Assembly: GCA_963713825.1 (NCBI GenBank)
Contig: CAVQNG010000025.1
Span: 608,001-672,000, forward strand
DNA from: an uncultured Acidobacteriota bacterium
GTDB taxonomy: Bacteria; Acidobacteriota; Thermoanaerobaculia; Multivoradales; JAHEKO01
Reading direction: 5' to 3'
DNA length: 64,000 bases
Shown: in pieces, positions 57,584 through 64,000 of the stretch
Layout of the letters: every line of letters starts with the position of its first letter
Numbering within the stretch: position 1 is the first letter of the stretch
Translations under genes and position numbers: made by a program
Notes under the pieces: generated by a model
What the model was told of the DNA's origin: nothing
Databases searched by the model: none
Seen by the model: the letters and a program-made list of their open reading frames with translations, nothing else

Positions 57584-58981
57584 ATGGCAGAGCAACGCGA
57601 TCTCGTCATCATCGGCAGTGGTCCTGGCGGCTACGTCGCCGCGATTCGTGCCGCACAGTTGGGCCTCGGTGTCACCGTGGTGGAGAAGGACCCCAAATTC
57701 GGCGGCACCTGCCTGCACCGAGGGTGCATTCCGACCAAGGCGCTTCTCCGCACGGCGGGCATGTTGGACGACATCCGGTCAGCGGAGAAGTTCGGGATCG
57801 AAGTGGCTGCGCCGAGCTTGGATCTGGACCGGGCTCAGGCATTCAAGCAGCAGGTCGTCGACAAGAGCGCCAAGGGAATCGAGTACCTGTTCAAGAAGTA
57901 CGGCGTCGAAGGTGTTCAGGGTAGGGGCCGGCTGGTCGGTAGCCATGAGGTCGAAGTGCGGGGTGAGACCGGCACGATCACATTCGGGGCCCGCAACATT
58001 CTGATCGCCACGGGCTCGATTCCACGCCAGTTGCCGTTTGTCTCTACAGACGGCGAGCGCGTCCTGAGCTCGGACGATGTTCTGGAGTTAACGACGATTC
58101 CTGAGTCGCTGGTGGTCCTGGGCGCGGGTGCCGTGGGCTGTGAGTTCGCCTCGATCTTCAATTCGTTCGGGTCTGAAGTGGTTCTGGTCGAGATGCTGCC
58201 TCGCGTGCTGCCTCTCGAGGACGAGGAGGTCTCGAAGCAGCTGCAGCGTTCGCTGAAGAAGAGGGGAATCAAGGTCCTCACTGGCAGTCGGTTGAAAGAT
58301 GTCGTGCCGACGGGGAGTGGGCTCGAGATTGGCGTCGAGAGGGAAAAGGGAGACGGCAAGCAGTTGTCTGCCGAGGCGCTGTTGGTGGCCGTCGGGCGAG
58401 CGCCAGTGACCTCGGATCTAGGACTGGAAGCGCTAGGAATCAAGCTCGATCGCGGCTACATCGAAGTCAACGATCTGATGCAGACCGACGTGCCCCACAT
58501 TTACGCCATCGGAGATGTCGTCAATACGCCATGGTTGGCCCATGTCGCGTCGGCCGAAGGCATCCTGGCCGTCGAGCATGTGGCGGGCCAGGAGGTGCGG
58601 CCGATCGACTACGATCGAATTCCGGCCGTCACCTACTGCGATCCGGAAGTAGCCAGTGTCGGCCTGACGGAATCGCAAGCCAAAGAGCGAGGCTACGACG
58701 TCGCGACTGGCAAGTTCCCGTTCACAGCGCTGGCCAAGGCAGCGATCGAGGGTCACACCGAAGGCTTCGTCAAGGTGGTTCGAGAGAAGCGCTACGACGA
58801 GCTCCTGGGAGTCCATATCATCGGCCGCCACGCCACCGACCTGATCGCCGAAGCCTGTGTCGCTCTGCAGGTCGAATCGACGACAGAGGAGTTGTTTCGA
58901 ACCATTCATGCTCATCCGACGCTGTCGGAGGCCGTCGCGGAGGCAGCGCATGCGGCCGTCGGGCATGCGATCCATATCTGA
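57584..58981 (+). CDS. lpdA: Dihydrolipoamide dehydrogenase (E3)
   Basis: GSGPGGY, GGTCLHRGCIPTK, GAGAVG, HAHPTLSE. Confidence 0.96.
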   Translation: MAEQRDLVIIGSGPGGYVAAIRAAQLGLGVTVVEKDPKFGGTCLHRGCIPTKALLRTAGMLDDIRSAEKFGIEVAAPSLDLDRAQAFKQQVVDKSAKGIEYLFKKYGVEGVQGRGRLVGSHEVEVRGETGTITFGARNILIATGSIPRQLPFVSTDGERVLSSDDVLELTTIPESLVVLGAGAVGCEFASIFNSFGSEVVLVEMLPRVLPLEDEEVSKQLQRSLKKRGIKVLTGSRLKDVVPTGSGLEIGVEREKGDGKQLSAEALLVAVGRAPVTSDLGLEALGIKLDRGYIEVNDLMQTDVPHIYAIGDVVNTPWLAHVASAEGILAVEHVAGQEVRPIDYDRIPAVTYCDPEVASVGLTESQAKERGYDVATGKFPFTALAKAAIEGHTEGFVKVVREKRYDELLGVHIIGRHATDLIAEACVALQVESTTEELFRTIHAHPTLSEAVAEAAHAAVGHAIHI

Positions 58982-59074
58982 TGGACCTGTGGCGAGCGGA
59001 TCGATTGGCGCTGGAATCGAAGCTGACCAGGAGCCGCGAATCGGGGAATCGAGTCGAGTAAGGGAGAGACCTAC

Positions 59075-60463
59075 ATGGCGACAGAAGTCATCATGCCCGA
59101 GATGGGCGAATCCATCGCCGAGGGCACCATCACGAAATGGCTGGTCCAGGTCGGAGAGCGAGTGGAGAGAGACCAGCCTTTGTTCGAGGTTTCGACCGAC
59201 AAGGTCGATGCCGAGATTCCCAGTCCGGCCTCCGGAACCCTCCTGGTGGTGCACCACGGGGAAGGTGCAACCGTTCAGGTCAATGAGCTGGTCGCCATCG
59301 TCGGGGAGCCTGGTGAGCAACCGGAGGCCCAACCGGTGGCGGCGCCGGCTGGAGTCGAGGCCCCGGTTGTCGAGGCCTCGGAGCCCATTGAGGCCGCGGT
59401 CGAACAACCTGCTCCCGTTGCGGAGCCCGCTCCGACGCAGCAGGTAGTGGTCGGCGAAGATAGTCAGCTTGTCGACAGAATTCGTCGGTTCTCGAGTCCA
59501 CTGGTCCGCAAGATGGCGGCTGCAGAGGGGGTCGATCTCTCGCAGATCCAGGGTACGGGAATCCAGGGACGGGTGACCAAGCAGGACATGCAGGAGTACT
59601 TGGAGCGCCGATCGGCGGCACCGCCTTCGACGGCAGCCCCACCTCCCGCTGCTCCGGCTTCGCCGATGCGCACGGCAGAAGTCGTCACAGCGGCTCGACG
59701 TGCGCCAGTCGGTGACTTTCAGGTCGCTGCCTACCACGAGGGGGACAACGTCGAGATCGAGCCGATGTCCAATATCCGTCGCCTGACGGCGTCTCATATG
59801 GTCTATTCCAAGGCCACTTCGGCGCACGTCAGCACGGTCTTCCACGTCGACCTGTCCAGAGTGGCCAAGGTGAGGGCCCGCGCCAAGCGAGGCTTCGCGC
59901 AGACCCACGGTACGAAGCTCACCTTCATGCCGTTCATCTTCAAGGCGGTGGCCAACGCGCTCACCGCCTTTCCAAATCTGAATTCGTCCATCGACGGCAC
60001 CAACATCGTGCACAAGAAGGACATCAACCTGGGTATGGCTGTCGCTCTCGATTGGGGCCTTCTGGTACCCGTCATCCGACACGCCGATCGGCTCAACCTC
60101 GTTGGCCTCGCGAAGACAGCCAACGATCTGGCCGAGCGCGCCCGAAGCAAGCGTCTGAGTCCGGAGGAAGTTCAGGGCGGCACTTTTACGGTGACAAACC
60201 CAGGAGTCTTCGGCTCGCTGTTCGGTACTCCCATCATCAATCAGCCCCAGGTGGCGATCCTGGGCATCGGGGCCATCGAGAAGCGTCCGGTGGTGGTGAA
60301 CGACGACGATGGTAACGACACCATCGCGATCAAGACCATGTGTTATTTCGCTCTGACCTTCGATCATCGCCTGGTCGACGGCGCCGAGGCCGACAGCTTC
60401 ATGAATCACCTCCGGCGAACCCTGCTGGAGGAGACCTGGTCGGAGCTCGATTCGTTTCAGTAG
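59075..60463 (+). CDS. 2-oxoacid dehydrogenase E2 (dihydrolipoamide acyltransferase, SucB/DlaT-like)
   Basis: Lipoyl domain STDKVD; E3-binding SPLVRK..GTG..GRVTKQD; GTFTVTN; DHRLVDG. Confidence 0.92.
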   Translation: MATEVIMPEMGESIAEGTITKWLVQVGERVERDQPLFEVSTDKVDAEIPSPASGTLLVVHHGEGATVQVNELVAIVGEPGEQPEAQPVAAPAGVEAPVVEASEPIEAAVEQPAPVAEPAPTQQVVVGEDSQLVDRIRRFSSPLVRKMAAAEGVDLSQIQGTGIQGRVTKQDMQEYLERRSAAPPSTAAPPPAAPASPMRTAEVVTAARRAPVGDFQVAAYHEGDNVEIEPMSNIRRLTASHMVYSKATSAHVSTVFHVDLSRVAKVRARAKRGFAQTHGTKLTFMPFIFKAVANALTAFPNLNSSIDGTNIVHKKDINLGMAVALDWGLLVPVIRHADRLNLVGLAKTANDLAERARSKRLSPEEVQGGTFTVTNPGVFGSLFGTPIINQPQVAILGIGAIEKRPVVVNDDDGNDTIAIKTMCYFALTFDHRLVDGAEADSFMNHLRRTLLEETWSELDSFQ

Positions 60464-60525
60464 CCGCGCCCTGGTCGAGCCCGTCGCGAGAGCACTCACG
60501 GAGCGCTCGAGACAACGGTCCACAG

Positions 60526-61218
60526 GTGAGAGGAATTACCCTGCGAGCTTTGGATTGGAGCTACCTCGGCACGCTGGACTACCGGCGATCGCTGGCGCTA
60601 CAGGAGTTACGCCGAGAGAAGCTTCGTGCCGGTCAGGCGAATGAAGCGTTGCTCCTACTCGAGCACCCTCACACCTACACGCTGGGCCGCAACGCCGATC
60701 GCGCCGACATCCTGGCCGGTTCGGATTGGTTGCAGTCCAGGGGAGTGAAAGTCGAGGAGTGTGACCGCGGCGGTCAGGTCACCTACCATGGTCCCGGCCA
60801 GCTCGTCGGCTATCCGATCCTCGACCTGAATCCAGATCGACGCGACCTGAGACGCTACGTGCGTGACTTGCAGGAAGTCCTGGTCCGTGTGTTGGCCGAG
60901 GTCGGCCTGGCCGCCGAGCCTCGTTCGAAGAGTCCTGAGATCGGCGTCTGGGTGGAGGGGAAGAAGATCGCCTCTCTCGGTGTTCATGTCAGTCGGTGGA
61001 TCACGACCCACGGATTCGCTCTCAACGTGAACACCGATCTGAGCTACTTTGCCGCCATTGTGCCGTGCGGCATCCAGGGAGTGGAGATGACGTCGGTCGC
61101 TGAGCTCACAGGAAGGAATCTGCCGCTGAAAGACCTGGCGGCCTTGTGTGTCCACCACACGGCCGAGGTCTTTCAACGTCGCCCGCTCGCCATGACTTCC
61201 GAAGAGTTGATGGGCTGA
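60526..61218 (+). CDS. lipB: Lipoyl(octanoyl) transferase
   Basis: LLEHPHTYTLGR, RGGQVTYHGPGQLVGYP, KIASLG, HGFALN, IVPCG. Start uncertain (60526-60550). Confidence 0.93.
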   Translation: MRGITLRALDWSYLGTLDYRRSLALQELRREKLRAGQANEALLLLEHPHTYTLGRNADRADILAGSDWLQSRGVKVEECDRGGQVTYHGPGQLVGYPILDLNPDRRDLRRYVRDLQEVLVRVLAEVGLAAEPRSKSPEIGVWVEGKKIASLGVHVSRWITTHGFALNVNTDLSYFAAIVPCGIQGVEMTSVAELTGRNLPLKDLAALCVHHTAEVFQRRPLAMTSEELMG

Positions 61219-61640
61219 TGACCTACCGGTTCGTCGAACATACGGCCGACGTCGGTGTCGAGCTCGAGGCGAGCAGCTACGAGGGATTGCTGTCCGAGGG
61301 TCTTTTGGCGCTCACTGACACTCTGACCGAGGTCGAGCGGGTGAGCCTGGAGATCGAGCTGTCCGTCGATCTCCGTGCGCCGAGTCGTGAGGATCTTTTG
61401 GTCGGTTGGCTCAACGAGCTGGTCTACCTCTTTGATTCGAAATCGGTGCTGCTGCGCCAATCGGACATCGGAGTCGGGAAAGAAGGCGGCGAGTGGCGTC
61501 TACGGGCAACGGTAGGCGGTGAGCGCTACGATCCTGAACGGCACCGTATCAAAACGCTGATCAAGGCGGTCACCTACCACCAACTGGCGGTGAGATCATC
61601 GACGTCTGGATGGCAGGCCCGAGTCGTCTTTGACATCTGA
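61218..61640 (+). CDS. Archease (RtcB activator)
   Basis: MTYRFVEHTADVG (HTAD), LVGWLNELVY, IKAVTYH, C-terminal VFDI; TGATG coupling to lipB; directly upstream of rtcB. Confidence 0.92.
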   Translation: MTYRFVEHTADVGVELEASSYEGLLSEGLLALTDTLTEVERVSLEIELSVDLRAPSREDLLVGWLNELVYLFDSKSVLLRQSDIGVGKEGGEWRLRATVGGERYDPERHRIKTLIKAVTYHQLAVRSSTSGWQARVVFDI

Positions 61641-61732
61641 TCCGGCGATACTTGCGGTAGTAGACCGACAGGACTAGCCTCTAGAGGACAGGCACGGCAA
61701 GACCAATCGTGTTCGGGTGGAGGATCGGATCG

Positions 61733-63169
61733 ATGAGAATCGAACAGGTCGATGAGTTCCGCTGGAGGATTCCCAAGCAGGGAAAGATGCAAGTCGATGG
61801 CCTGATCTTCGCGAGTGCAGCGATGATGAGCGACATCCGCCACGACCCATGCCTTCAACAAGTCGTCAACGTAGCTCATCTACCGGGGATTGTCGGGGCT
61901 TCCATGGCCATGCCCGATATCCACTGGGGCTATGGTTTTCCCATCGGTGGCGTCGCCGCAATGGACGGCAAGAAGGGTGTCGTCTCGCCGGGCGGTGTCG
62001 GCTACGACATCAACTGAGGCGTTCGCCTCTTGCGCTCAGGTCTGAGTCGCTCCGAAATCCAGCCCAAACTGAGGCACCTCGTGACCCGCCTCTATCAGAA
62101 CATCCCAACCGGCATCGGCAAGGGCCGTGGCGATCTGCGGTTGAATCGACAGGAGCTGACAGGGGTCATGACTCGAGGGGCGGCGTGGTGCGTCGACCGG
62201 GGGATGGGCTACGAAGAGGACTTGGAGTTCCTCGAGGAGAAAGGCTGTATCGAGGGAGCGCGGCCCGATCTGGTGACGGACAAGGCCTATCAACGAGGGC
62301 GAAGTCAGCTTGGATCGTTGGGCTCGGGGAATCACTTCGCGGAAATCCAGTATGTGGCTGAAATCTACGACGAAGTTGCAGCTACCGCTTTGGGCCTCTT
62401 CGAGGACCAGGTGACTCTGACGATTCACAGTGGATCGAGAGGCCTCGGTCACCAGGTCTGCACGGACCACCTCCGGGTGATGGTGGAAGCGGCGGCTCGG
62501 TACGGCATCGAGCTACCCGATCGTCAGCTCTGTTGCGCTCCCATTCAATCCGCGGAAGGACGCCATTACCTTGGTGCCATGTCGGCGGCCGCCAACTTCG
62601 CCTTCGCCAATCGGCAGGTCATGACGCACTGGGCTCGCGAGAGTTTCATGCAGACCCTGGGCCTGGGACCCGGCCGGGCTGGGCTCGACGTGGTTTACGA
62701 TGTCTGTCACAACATCGCGAAGTTCGAGACGTTCGAGCTCGACGGTAGGAGTCGACGCCTCTGCGTTCACCGCAAAGGAGCCACCCGGGCTTATCCACCC
62801 GGTCACCCGCAGACACCCGAGGCCTACAGGGAAGTCGGGCAGCCTGTATTGATTCCCGGGGATATGGGACGCTACTCCTATGTGCTCGTGGGAACCGAGA
62901 AAGCCTACCGTGAGACCTATGGCTCCACTTGTCATGGGGCGGGCAGAAGGCTCAGCCGCAAGCAGGCCAAGAAGCAGGCGAGAGGGAGAAGACTCTTGGA
63001 GGAGCTCGAAAATGAGGGTGTTGTGGTGATGGCCGCCGGAATGGGCACGGTAGCCGAGGAGATGCCCGAGGCATACAAAGACGTCTCGGTTGTGGTCGAC
63101 GTGGTTCAAGGCGCCGGGATCAGCCGCAAAGTCGCCCAACTGAAACCGATGGGAGTGATCAAGGGATGA
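61733..63169 (+). CDS. rtcB: RNA-splicing/repair ligase RtcB, 478 aa, with in-frame TGA (putative selenocysteine) at codon 95
   Basis: ORFs 61709-62017 and 62030-63169 are in the same frame, separated only by TGA 62015-62017: [81 protein letters not shown] at 61719-61723. Confidence 0.92.
62032..62050 (+). promoter_or_regulatory. Candidate bacterial SECIS element
   Basis: GCG-CUCA-[GGUC]-UGAG-U-CGC: 7-bp stem with a bulged U; the loop starts with G, 21 nt after the UGA. Confidence 0.78.
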
Positions 63170-64000
63170 GTGCCGAGAAACAGAGCGCCAGGTTCACTTC
63201 AGAGTCTATGGATGCGGCGGAGGCGACCGCTCCATCTTCTTCGGATCAACGAGCCGACGCGATTCTCGATCGCTGGCGGAGCGTGATTCCCGAGATCGAG
63301 TGGGCCGTGCAGGCGTCACTTATCGAACGGATCCGACGCCTCAAGAAGCAGCGAAAAGCCGTCATTCTGGCCCACAACTACCAGACGCCCGAGATCTTCT
63401 TTGGTGTCGCCGATTTCACCGGGGATTCGCTGGGTCTGGCGCGGCAGGGGTCCGAAACCGAGGCGGAGGTCATCGTCCTCTGTGGAGTCCACTTCATGGC
63501 GGAGACGGCGAAGATCTTGAGCCCAGAGAAGACGGTGCTCCTTCCCGACCAGGAGGCGGGTTGCTCCTTGGCCAGCTCATTAGCGGCCGGTGATGTGCGG
63601 CAGCTCCGCGAGCGCTATCCAGGAGTTCCCGTGGTGAGCTATGTGAATACTTCCGCGGCCGTCAAAGCGGAGTCCGATATCTGCTGTACCTCGGCGAACG
63701 CCGTGGAAGTGGTGCAGTCGCTCGATAGCGATCGGGTGATTCTTCTTCCGGACGAATACCTCGGCGACTACGTGGCGCGACACTCGGACGTGGAGATCAT
63801 TCGGTGGGAGGGCCGTTGCGAGGTCCATGAGCGCTTCTCTGCCGAGGAGGTGCGCGGCTATCGGCAGCAGCATCCTGGAATCCAGGTTCTGGCACACCCC
63901 GAATGTCCGAGCGACGTGCTGACGGAGGCGGATTTCGTCGGCTCGACCAGCGGCATGATTCGTCATCTCGAGAGCAGCCGGCCCGAGCGGGTCGTGCTGA
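63166..64000 (+). CDS. nadA: Quinolinate synthase, 5' part; runs off the right edge
   Basis: Manual translation from ATG 63166 (ATGA overlap with the rtcB stop): ILAHNYQ..GDSLGL..CGVHFMAETAK..AGCSLA..YVNTSA..CCTSANA..PDEYLG..CEVH..AHPEC. Confidence 0.93.
   Translation, partial: MSAEKQSARFTSESMDAAEATAPSSSDQRADAILDRWRSVIPEIEWAVQASLIERIRRLKKQRKAVILAHNYQTPEIFFGVADFTGDSLGLARQGSETEAEVIVLCGVHFMAETAKILSPEKTVLLPDQEAGCSLASSLAAGDVRQLRERYPGVPVVSYVNTSAAVKAESDICCTSANAVEVVQSLDSDRVILLPDEYLGDYVARHSDVEIIRWEGRCEVHERFSAEEVRGYRQQHPGIQVLAHPECPSDVLTEADFVGSTSGMIRHLESSRPERVVL

Follow-up and report, generated by a model that had tools for sequence, protein, structure and literature searches.

The 64,000-nt stretch of DNA analysed here (hereafter the window) comes from an uncultured Acidobacteriota bacterium (assembly GCA_963713825.1, contig CAVQNG010000025.1, here C25, positions 608,001 to 672,000), and it carries an rtcB gene for an RNA ligase whose reading frame is broken by a single in-frame TGA. 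The rtcB coding sequence lies on the plus strand at 61733-63169 (window positions are used throughout), and would comprise 478 codons and a TGA stop (63167-63169) if the internal UGA is read as selenocysteine (Sec). A Shine-Dalgarno-like GGAGGA (61719-61724, plus strand) precedes the ATG by 8 nt. From ATG 61733, the frame holds 478 sense codons and its sole in-frame stop is the TGA at 62015-62017 (plus strand). It forms codon 95, where Sec is proposed to be inserted, and the letters around it read GGC TAC GAC ATC AAC TGA GGC GTT CGC (G-Y-D-I-N-*-G-V-R). The translation contains GNHF, HSGSRG, CHNIAK, HRKGA, CHGAGR, EAYKD and a terminal KG. A preliminary description of this DNA had reported the TGA as the only interruption of an otherwise intact frame, and we find the same frame, the same single stop and every motif that it listed.

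Gene callers instead report a truncated open reading frame (ORF) of 379 aa, which starts from a TTG downstream of the TGA (62030-63169, plus strand). In the protein collection that we searched, this truncated product (P0009) is 100% identical to the full-length query over 79% of the query, and its cluster has 22 members of 362-379 aa. By our own count, about 25 of the 120 listed matches are 379-aa truncations. The preliminary description had foreseen that annotation pipelines would miscall the gene, and public protein collections do carry rtcB as the 379-aa product from TTG 62030. The genome has no second copy; a profile search of the 5.42-Mb assembly returned one rtcB match only (576.9 bits).

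The identity of the protein is clear from its matches. Pfam PF01139 (RtcB) is matched with 583.9 bits (cut-off 27) over residues 43-478, covering profile positions 1-426 of 426. The protein aligns end to end with T. thermophilus TTHA1785 (E = 5.7e-185), and also with Pyrococcus horikoshii RtcB (PH1602; E = 8.8e-176) and human RTCB (about 1e-129), with approximately 60% identity to RtcB crystal structures. In the alignment to solved structures, codon 95 stands opposite Cys98 of P. horikoshii RtcB. According to the available part of Jacewicz et al. (2022, PMC9745838), this cysteine (Cys) bridges the two metal sites, with M1 held by His234, His329 and Cys98, and M2 by Cys98, Asp95 and His203; changing it to alanine abolishes all steps, and in one RtcB crystal it was oxidised to sulfonic acid. 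The other active-site residues align exactly. With roles taken from the same text and all codons on the plus strand, Asp92 (GAC, 62006-62008) corresponds to the M2 ligand Asp95, His201 (62333-62335) to the M2 ligand His203, His232 (62426-62428) to the M1 ligand His234, His326 (62708-62710) to the M1 ligand His329, and His401 (62933-62935) to the guanylylated nucleophile His404. Position 98 is UGA, and would hold Sec, the chalcogen analogue of Cys. RtcB enzymes characteristically use GTP and Mn to join 3'-phosphate or 2',3'-cyclic phosphate ends to 5'-OH ends. Because Asp92, His201, His232, His326 and His401 are unchanged, the gene should encode an RtcB 3'-phosphate/5'-hydroxyl RNA ligase, and its GTP-dependent ligation chemistry is expected to be the same. 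The structural alignment thus agrees with the preliminary description in placing the UGA at the metal-bridging Cys. The same description had called the equivalent human residue sensitive to oxidation, which is supported by the available text of a study of human RTCB, where Cys122 is the oxidation-sensitive residue and is shielded by the flavoprotein PYROXD1 (PMC12263435).

Downstream of the UGA, the minimum free energy (MFE) fold shows a hairpin of the selenocysteine insertion sequence (SECIS) type at 62032-62050 (plus strand). Its 5' arm spans 62032-62038, its GGUC loop 62039-62042 and its 3' arm 62043-62050, with U62047 bulged; the hairpin begins 14 nt after the UGA and the loop 21 nt after it. 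A SECIS-like hairpin had been part of the preliminary description, and it is conserved in all 12 close TGA forms. These share GCGCUCA-GGUC-UGAG-Y-CGC at the same offset, with only the bulged pyrimidine varying, while third codon positions flanking the 19-nt hairpin are only 42-83% conserved. The hairpin block also uses TCA (Ser) and GGT (Gly) codons within a GC-rich gene. Across 91 TGA contexts in a gap-free alignment, 70.5% of cells are paired in the window-type structure, compared with 58.1% after shuffling (0/500 as high) and 27-43% in slid controls, and five of the seven pairs show changes on both sides. Mixed hairpin registers depress these pair counts, and the sequences are related, so that the shuffle count is not a probability.

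To see how far the UGA recurs, we compared the gene with those of related genomes, 51/61 of which gave an RtcB match. Codon 95 was TGA in 12 and TGC or TGT in 18 of 30 related rtcB loci (the best fetched, including the window's own), the TGA forms falling in two families. Two TGA fragments (G026 and G009:C61) lie outside these 30. One of them, G026:C238:5488-6763, is a TGA-bearing rtcB whose matches (1-264 and 274-426) fall in two separate frames, likely through a frameshift or an assembly error in a draft genome. Within the window's own genus, four of six genomes have TGA and two have TGT (three and two of the five assemblies other than the window's). The hairpin is absent from 14/18 Cys forms, which encode variable peptides in its place. 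Both same-genus TGT genes (L023 in G002 and L024 in G001) have kept the hairpin, one of them with an A-to-G change that preserves a G-U pair, and their hairpin looks like a relic of a recent conversion from Sec to Cys. The Cys row L029 (G006) and a TGA-free match in G207 come from unpublished genomes, and no result depends on either.

Selection has acted on both sides of the TGA. Compared with ten other TGA forms by the Nei-Gojobori method, the ratio of nonsynonymous to synonymous substitution rates (dN/dS) is 0.046-0.149 upstream (88 codons, three comparisons saturated) and 0.055-0.154 downstream (382-383 codons). The synonymous rate (dS) in these comparisons is 0.9-2.5, and since dN/dS is low at such distances, neither the TGA nor either half of the gene has been lost over approximately one or more substitutions per synonymous site. 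The preliminary description had proposed examining dN/dS of the 3' part, and looking for independent homologues with TGA at this codon and a conserved hairpin; purifying selection is found on both sides, and such homologues exist. Elsewhere in the phylum, two rtcB matches (G065:C7:28221-29378 and G153:C376:2-862) start at query residue 93, within open frames of 1073 and 1070 aa respectively, a pattern consistent with an intein inserted at this Cys, where P. horikoshii RtcB has one too.

The UGA also recurs well beyond the family. A degenerate pattern for G-[Y/F]-D-I-N-TGA-G-V-R, run against 185,579 species with a single genome each, found at least 119 TGA-bearing stretches in several phyla, where uniform-composition arithmetic predicts about two by chance. 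Among the 119 listed stretches, the upstream frame is at least 85 codons long in 110 and cut by the locus start in nine; downstream of the TGA, 88 have a complete frame of 376-383 codons, 28 stay open up to the end of the locus and three meet an early stop. These three are L089 (TGA after 133 codons), L116 (an N-run, then TAA after 86) and L118 (TAA at 324), and they may be assembly errors or real decay. Going by the titles of the 80 listed records, as we read them, Deltaproteobacteria, Thermodesulfobacteriota or Syntrophia-type organisms account for 39, Nitrospirota or Thermodesulfovibrionia for 19 (among them Candidatus Magnetobacterium casense), Acidobacteriota for 14 and Binatia for two; two more are unclassified, and Eisenbacteria, Gemmatimonadales, Polyangiaceae and Pseudomonadota appear once each. 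L106, titled Polyangiaceae, is identical to L050 (G009, an Acidobacteriota genome of the window's family) over the 57 nt that follow the TGA, and the label of this metagenome bin may reflect faulty binning or labelling. In a FastTree phylogeny of the Sec and Cys forms, the Cys rows come from Acidobacteriota only.

Three types of hairpin follow the TGA at these loci. The first has a GCGCUC(A)-type stem, in which the bulge is not always present, the second a GAAGACC/GGUCUUC-type stem with the same G/U-rich loop, and the third, in Nitrospirota, a long stem of 10-12 bp. Among the 119 listed loci, 85 show 85% pairing or more in a short hairpin at offsets 17-35, and 33 have another MFE helix of at least five pairs; one context was too short. 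A fixed set of pairs drawn up for the long hairpin of the Nitrospirota type reached at least 85% fit in only four sequences. It fits so few because the register varies, and the MFE folds do show long helices there.

We then considered whether the TGA is real and whether the bacterium could decode it. The stretch is present in at least 15 sequencing runs with half or more of its sampled words. The preliminary description had asked for the TGA to be confirmed, and contigs from four runs in four studies span 61973-62020 with no alternative letter at 62015-62017. These are assembled contigs, not raw reads, and the best-matching run may be the source sample. The same contigs show nearby synonymous differences, for example at 62020 and 61978, and because these were listed, differences at the TGA would have been reported too. 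One contig of run X4 matches to 62016 and then continues with T and diverged sequence, so a TGT (Cys) relative of the gene co-occurs in this sediment sample.

The assembly that holds the window (5.42 Mb, 96.4% complete) also encodes the Sec machinery that the preliminary description had proposed searching for. With all four components above curated cut-offs, it has selA (460.9 bits; cut-off 267.9), selB (320.3 bits, or 353.1 with the C-terminal wing; cut-off 242), selD (339.5 bits) and selC, the tRNA-Sec gene (69.2 bits against Rfam; called by ARAGORN as tRNA-SeC with anticodon TCA). The selD gene is itself a selenoprotein gene: a single TGA interrupts its frame in the G-G-U-x-x-K context usual near the N-terminus, with a hairpin after it. 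This gene lies outside the window on the minus strand (C25:839157-840080), where it reads T-T-G-G-*-A-A-K and is followed by an 8-bp hairpin with a GGG loop. Reassignment of TGA was considered and rejected, as TGA terminates 225 of the 421 ORFs of at least 400 codons on C25, and rtcB itself. Together with the UGA/Cys pair, the 3' stem-loop at a constrained distance and the purifying selection, the sel genes give this locus the marks of a selenoprotein gene.

The neighbourhood of rtcB also fits an RNA ligase. On its 5' side, after a gap of 92 nt, lies an archease gene (61146-61640 in the ORF list, plus strand; PF01951, E = 8e-40, 136.7 bits against a cut-off of 25). Archease is the RtcB activation factor and, in the part of the source available, is described as an activator of RtcB guanylylation (PMC10944509). 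This partner, which adjoins rtcB here, is typical of long archaeal/eukaryal-type RtcB. As residue 27 is the first in the Pfam match, archease may in fact be translated from an internal codon. Farther 5' (57584-61218) are genes for lipoamide dehydrogenase (E3), 2-oxoacid dehydrogenase E2 and a lipoyl ligase/transferase with an LplA-B catalytic domain, the last overlapping the archease ORF as listed. On the 3' side, the start of nadA (63166-63999) overlaps the stop codon of rtcB (ATGA).

Taken together, we find it very probable that UGA95 is decoded as Sec, giving a predicted full-length Sec-RtcB of 478 residues. The TGA is neither a nonsense mutation nor an assembly error on this evidence, because the Sec machinery, the recurrence of the codon, the hairpin, dN/dS and the contigs of four runs all speak for a functional codon. 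As judged from the genomes, the metal-bridging residue of RtcB is a conserved and widespread Sec/Cys pair, a kind of exchange that is common among selenoproteins. By analogy with the canonical bacterial mechanism, SelB carrying Sec-tRNA(Sec) and GTP would bind the hairpin at 62032-62050 and insert Sec at the UGA, preventing termination. The selenolate of Sec95 would then replace the Cys98 thiolate in bridging M1 and M2, and archease-assisted guanylylation of His401 would be followed by joining of 3'-phosphate and 5'-hydroxyl ends, as in the Cys enzyme. Within this scheme, we infer both the actual insertion of selenium and the catalytic competence of the product.

The alternatives fare less well. 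The one that survives best supposes that the UGA is mostly read as another residue, either as Cys through mis-acylated tRNA(Sec) or as Trp or Cys through near-cognate suppression, with the UGA acting mainly as a selenium-responsive or translational throttle; most of the working enzyme would then be a Cys form. The repeated interchange of Cys and Sec forms would suit this idea, as would the instability of an engineered RtcB with Sec at position 98 (U98), described in the available text of PMC4150793. However, the SECIS-type hairpin is kept at the RNA level where the codon is TGA and degrades once it becomes Cys, and the full Sec pathway is retained, including a Sec-containing SelD. We therefore consider decoding as another residue improbable.

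Still less credible is a true split gene, in which a 94-residue N-terminal peptide and the 379-residue protein from TTG 62030 assemble into one enzyme. A TTG start does occur 13 nt after the TGA, and gene callers do report that ORF. However, neither piece would hold the metal-bridging residue, whose loss abolishes all activity (PMC9745838, in the part available). The TTG also lies within the spacer between UGA and hairpin, several TGA forms have CTG there, and no solved RtcB is split at that point.

A pseudogene, in which a TGC/TGT-to-TGA mutation inactivated rtcB and left the downstream frame as a decaying remnant, seems scarcely tenable. It could account for the truncation reported by gene callers, and for the early stop or N-run in 3 of the 119 listed loci. 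It sits badly with TGA at the same codon in 12/30 related loci and at least 119 scan loci of several phyla, with a downstream dN/dS of 0.05-0.15 at near-saturated dS, and with a conserved hairpin in what is the sole rtcB of the genome. Finally, the idea that a Cys codon was misread at one base in sequencing or assembly can practically be set aside: we found no support for it, as the X4 contig shows only that Cys relatives co-occur in such samples, whereas the contigs of four runs from four studies have no other letter and three other assemblies of the genus also have TGA.

Several observations nevertheless weigh against Sec decoding, or against Sec being of much advantage to RtcB. The stability of the window hairpin is unremarkable (z = -1.31; 23/200 shuffles fold at least as well), and over the 57 nt 3' of the codon the mean MFE is weaker in 91 TGA forms (-19.4 kcal/mol) than in 18 Cys forms (-23.7 kcal/mol), the latter coming from GC-rich genomes. 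As folding energy does not discriminate, the significance of the hairpin rests on conservation, position and pair counts. Furthermore, 4/18 Cys forms reach at least 85% pairing. Two are the TGT genes of the window's genus and a third, L036, is sister to a Sec form; the fourth, L046, has no obvious explanation as a relic. Five RNA runs contained only 7-9% of the sampled words of the stretch.

The distribution of the UGA points the same way. In an even sample of the phylum, only 4/72 rtcB-bearing genomes (E <= 1e-100) have TGA. In an IQ-TREE phylogeny of the 30 proteins, the Sec state needs six changes, of which at least four are forced by well-supported branches, and these 4-6 or more switches between Sec and Cys, together with the 4/72 genomes, argue against a strong and general advantage of Sec. 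The repeated switching suggests that the two forms are nearly interchangeable. Most carriers of Sec-RtcB come from lineages that are rich in selenoproteins and largely anaerobic, which also counts against a strong advantage. Chemically, the selenolate is softer than the thiolate and the preferred Mn(II) is hard, from which we infer that the advantage is not obvious. Nor is Sec at RtcB position 98 automatically benign, since the engineered U98 protein cleaved itself (PMC4150793, in its available text).

What Sec would bring to the enzyme, for which the preliminary description had suggested a changed metal preference or oxidation resistance, is a matter of speculation. Most likely it would resist irreversible over-oxidation at the one residue of RtcB known to be inactivated by oxidation. 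As given in the available part of PMC11431864, Sec in general has a lower pKa and is oxidised reversibly. Because oxidation is known to hit this residue of RtcB, better resistance to irreversible inactivation is plausible. A bolder proposal is that Sec-RtcB is an adaptive alternative to the Cys enzyme in sediment bacteria, in which a selenolate at the metal-bridging site would make the oxidation-sensitive residue reversibly oxidisable and so self-repairing, a built-in counterpart of the protection that PYROXD1 gives in animals. We put this forward only tentatively, and on balance doubt it. Under this adaptive proposal, Sec may also alter which metals the ligase can use and which ones poison it.

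The sequence comparisons also have practical consequences. The predicted Sec-RtcB would be a new selenoprotein form of a well-known enzyme, now mis-annotated as truncated. In at least 119 species-representative genomes, and on many metagenome contigs, the gene is present but reported as approximately 379 residues, so RtcB is mis-annotated and selenoproteomes are under-counted in Acidobacteriota, Thermodesulfobacteriota, Nitrospirota and other phyla. To our knowledge, nearly all known selenoproteins are redox enzymes. If Sec decoding is correct, the known roles of selenium in proteins would extend to a bridge between the two catalytic metals of an RNA ligase of the nucleotidyl-transferase type. 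If the adaptive proposal were also correct, this would be the first selenoenzyme in RNA repair or ligation, with Sec as both a structural and a catalytic bridge in a binuclear non-redox centre. The active-site Cys of RtcB is a weak point under oxidative or copper stress, for which animals need the protector PYROXD1. Nature appears to have repeated the Cys-to-Sec experiment, and the Sec/Cys pairs within one genus are ready for biochemical comparison.

A natural Sec-RtcB appears to be undescribed in searchable text, a scope that leaves supplements, databases and subscription papers to one side. Full-text searches that combined RtcB, splicing ligase, RNA ligase, UPF0027 or COG1690 with selenoprotein or SECIS terms returned only the engineered U98 and unrelated papers. 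A 2026 review that already lists more than 110 prokaryotic selenoprotein families (PMC13188914) has no RtcB, ligase, PF01139, COG1690, tRNA-splicing or RNA-splicing in its text, and the word ligase is absent from deep-Sep (PMC12013277), the BSepDB paper (PMC13326102), Peng et al. 2016 (PMC5029168) and a 2022 review (PMC9312934). Kivenson et al. 2021 (PMC8318568) report non-redox candidates with no RtcB in the main text. Among NCBIfam models, none reaches its cut-off for the window protein and none is a selenoprotein model for RtcB; the best is NF038162, for intein-containing RtcB.

This last family makes a useful first comparison. Its splice junction is Cys98, the same Cys that is replaced by UGA here. 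The window rtcB has no intein, and with 726 bits against the NF038162 cut-off of 1150 it matches the extein parts only. The solved RtcBs (PH1602, TTHA1785 and human RTCB) share with the window protein a length class of approximately 480 aa, the Asp, the three His and the His-GMP nucleophile. All solved or biochemically studied RtcBs have Cys at the M1-M2 bridge, whereas the window gene has UGA. Human RTCB shows what is at stake at this position. In the available text of PMC12263435, the same active-site Cys (Cys122) is inactivated by Cu(II)-dependent oxidation and is protected by PYROXD1, a partner protein that occludes the site; here we propose a substitution of the residue itself, by one that can be oxidised reversibly.

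For the UGA and its hairpin, the closest parallel is fdhF of E. coli, the reference selenoprotein gene of bacteria, which likewise has an in-frame TGA (codon 140) and a hairpin whose apical GGUC loop is closed by an A-U pair, as in the window rtcB. Counted from the T of the TGA, the loop lies at 21-24 in fdhF and at 24-27 in rtcB, 3 nt farther away. The bulge of the fdhF SECIS is on the opposite strand from that of the rtcB hairpin. The product of fdhF, formate dehydrogenase H, is a redox enzyme, unlike RtcB, although its Sec is likewise a metal ligand, of molybdenum.

The nearest precedent for the protein is artificial. In the engineered P. horikoshii RtcB U98 of Haruna et al. (2014), Sec occupies the same position in the same GYDIN-C/U-GVR context as in the window gene, and the protein underwent spontaneous self-cleavage, as reported in the available part of that paper (PMC4150793), where ligase activity of the product is not mentioned. 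It was made with a UAG codon and an engineered EF-Tu, with no SECIS, whereas the natural forms are conserved and under purifying selection.

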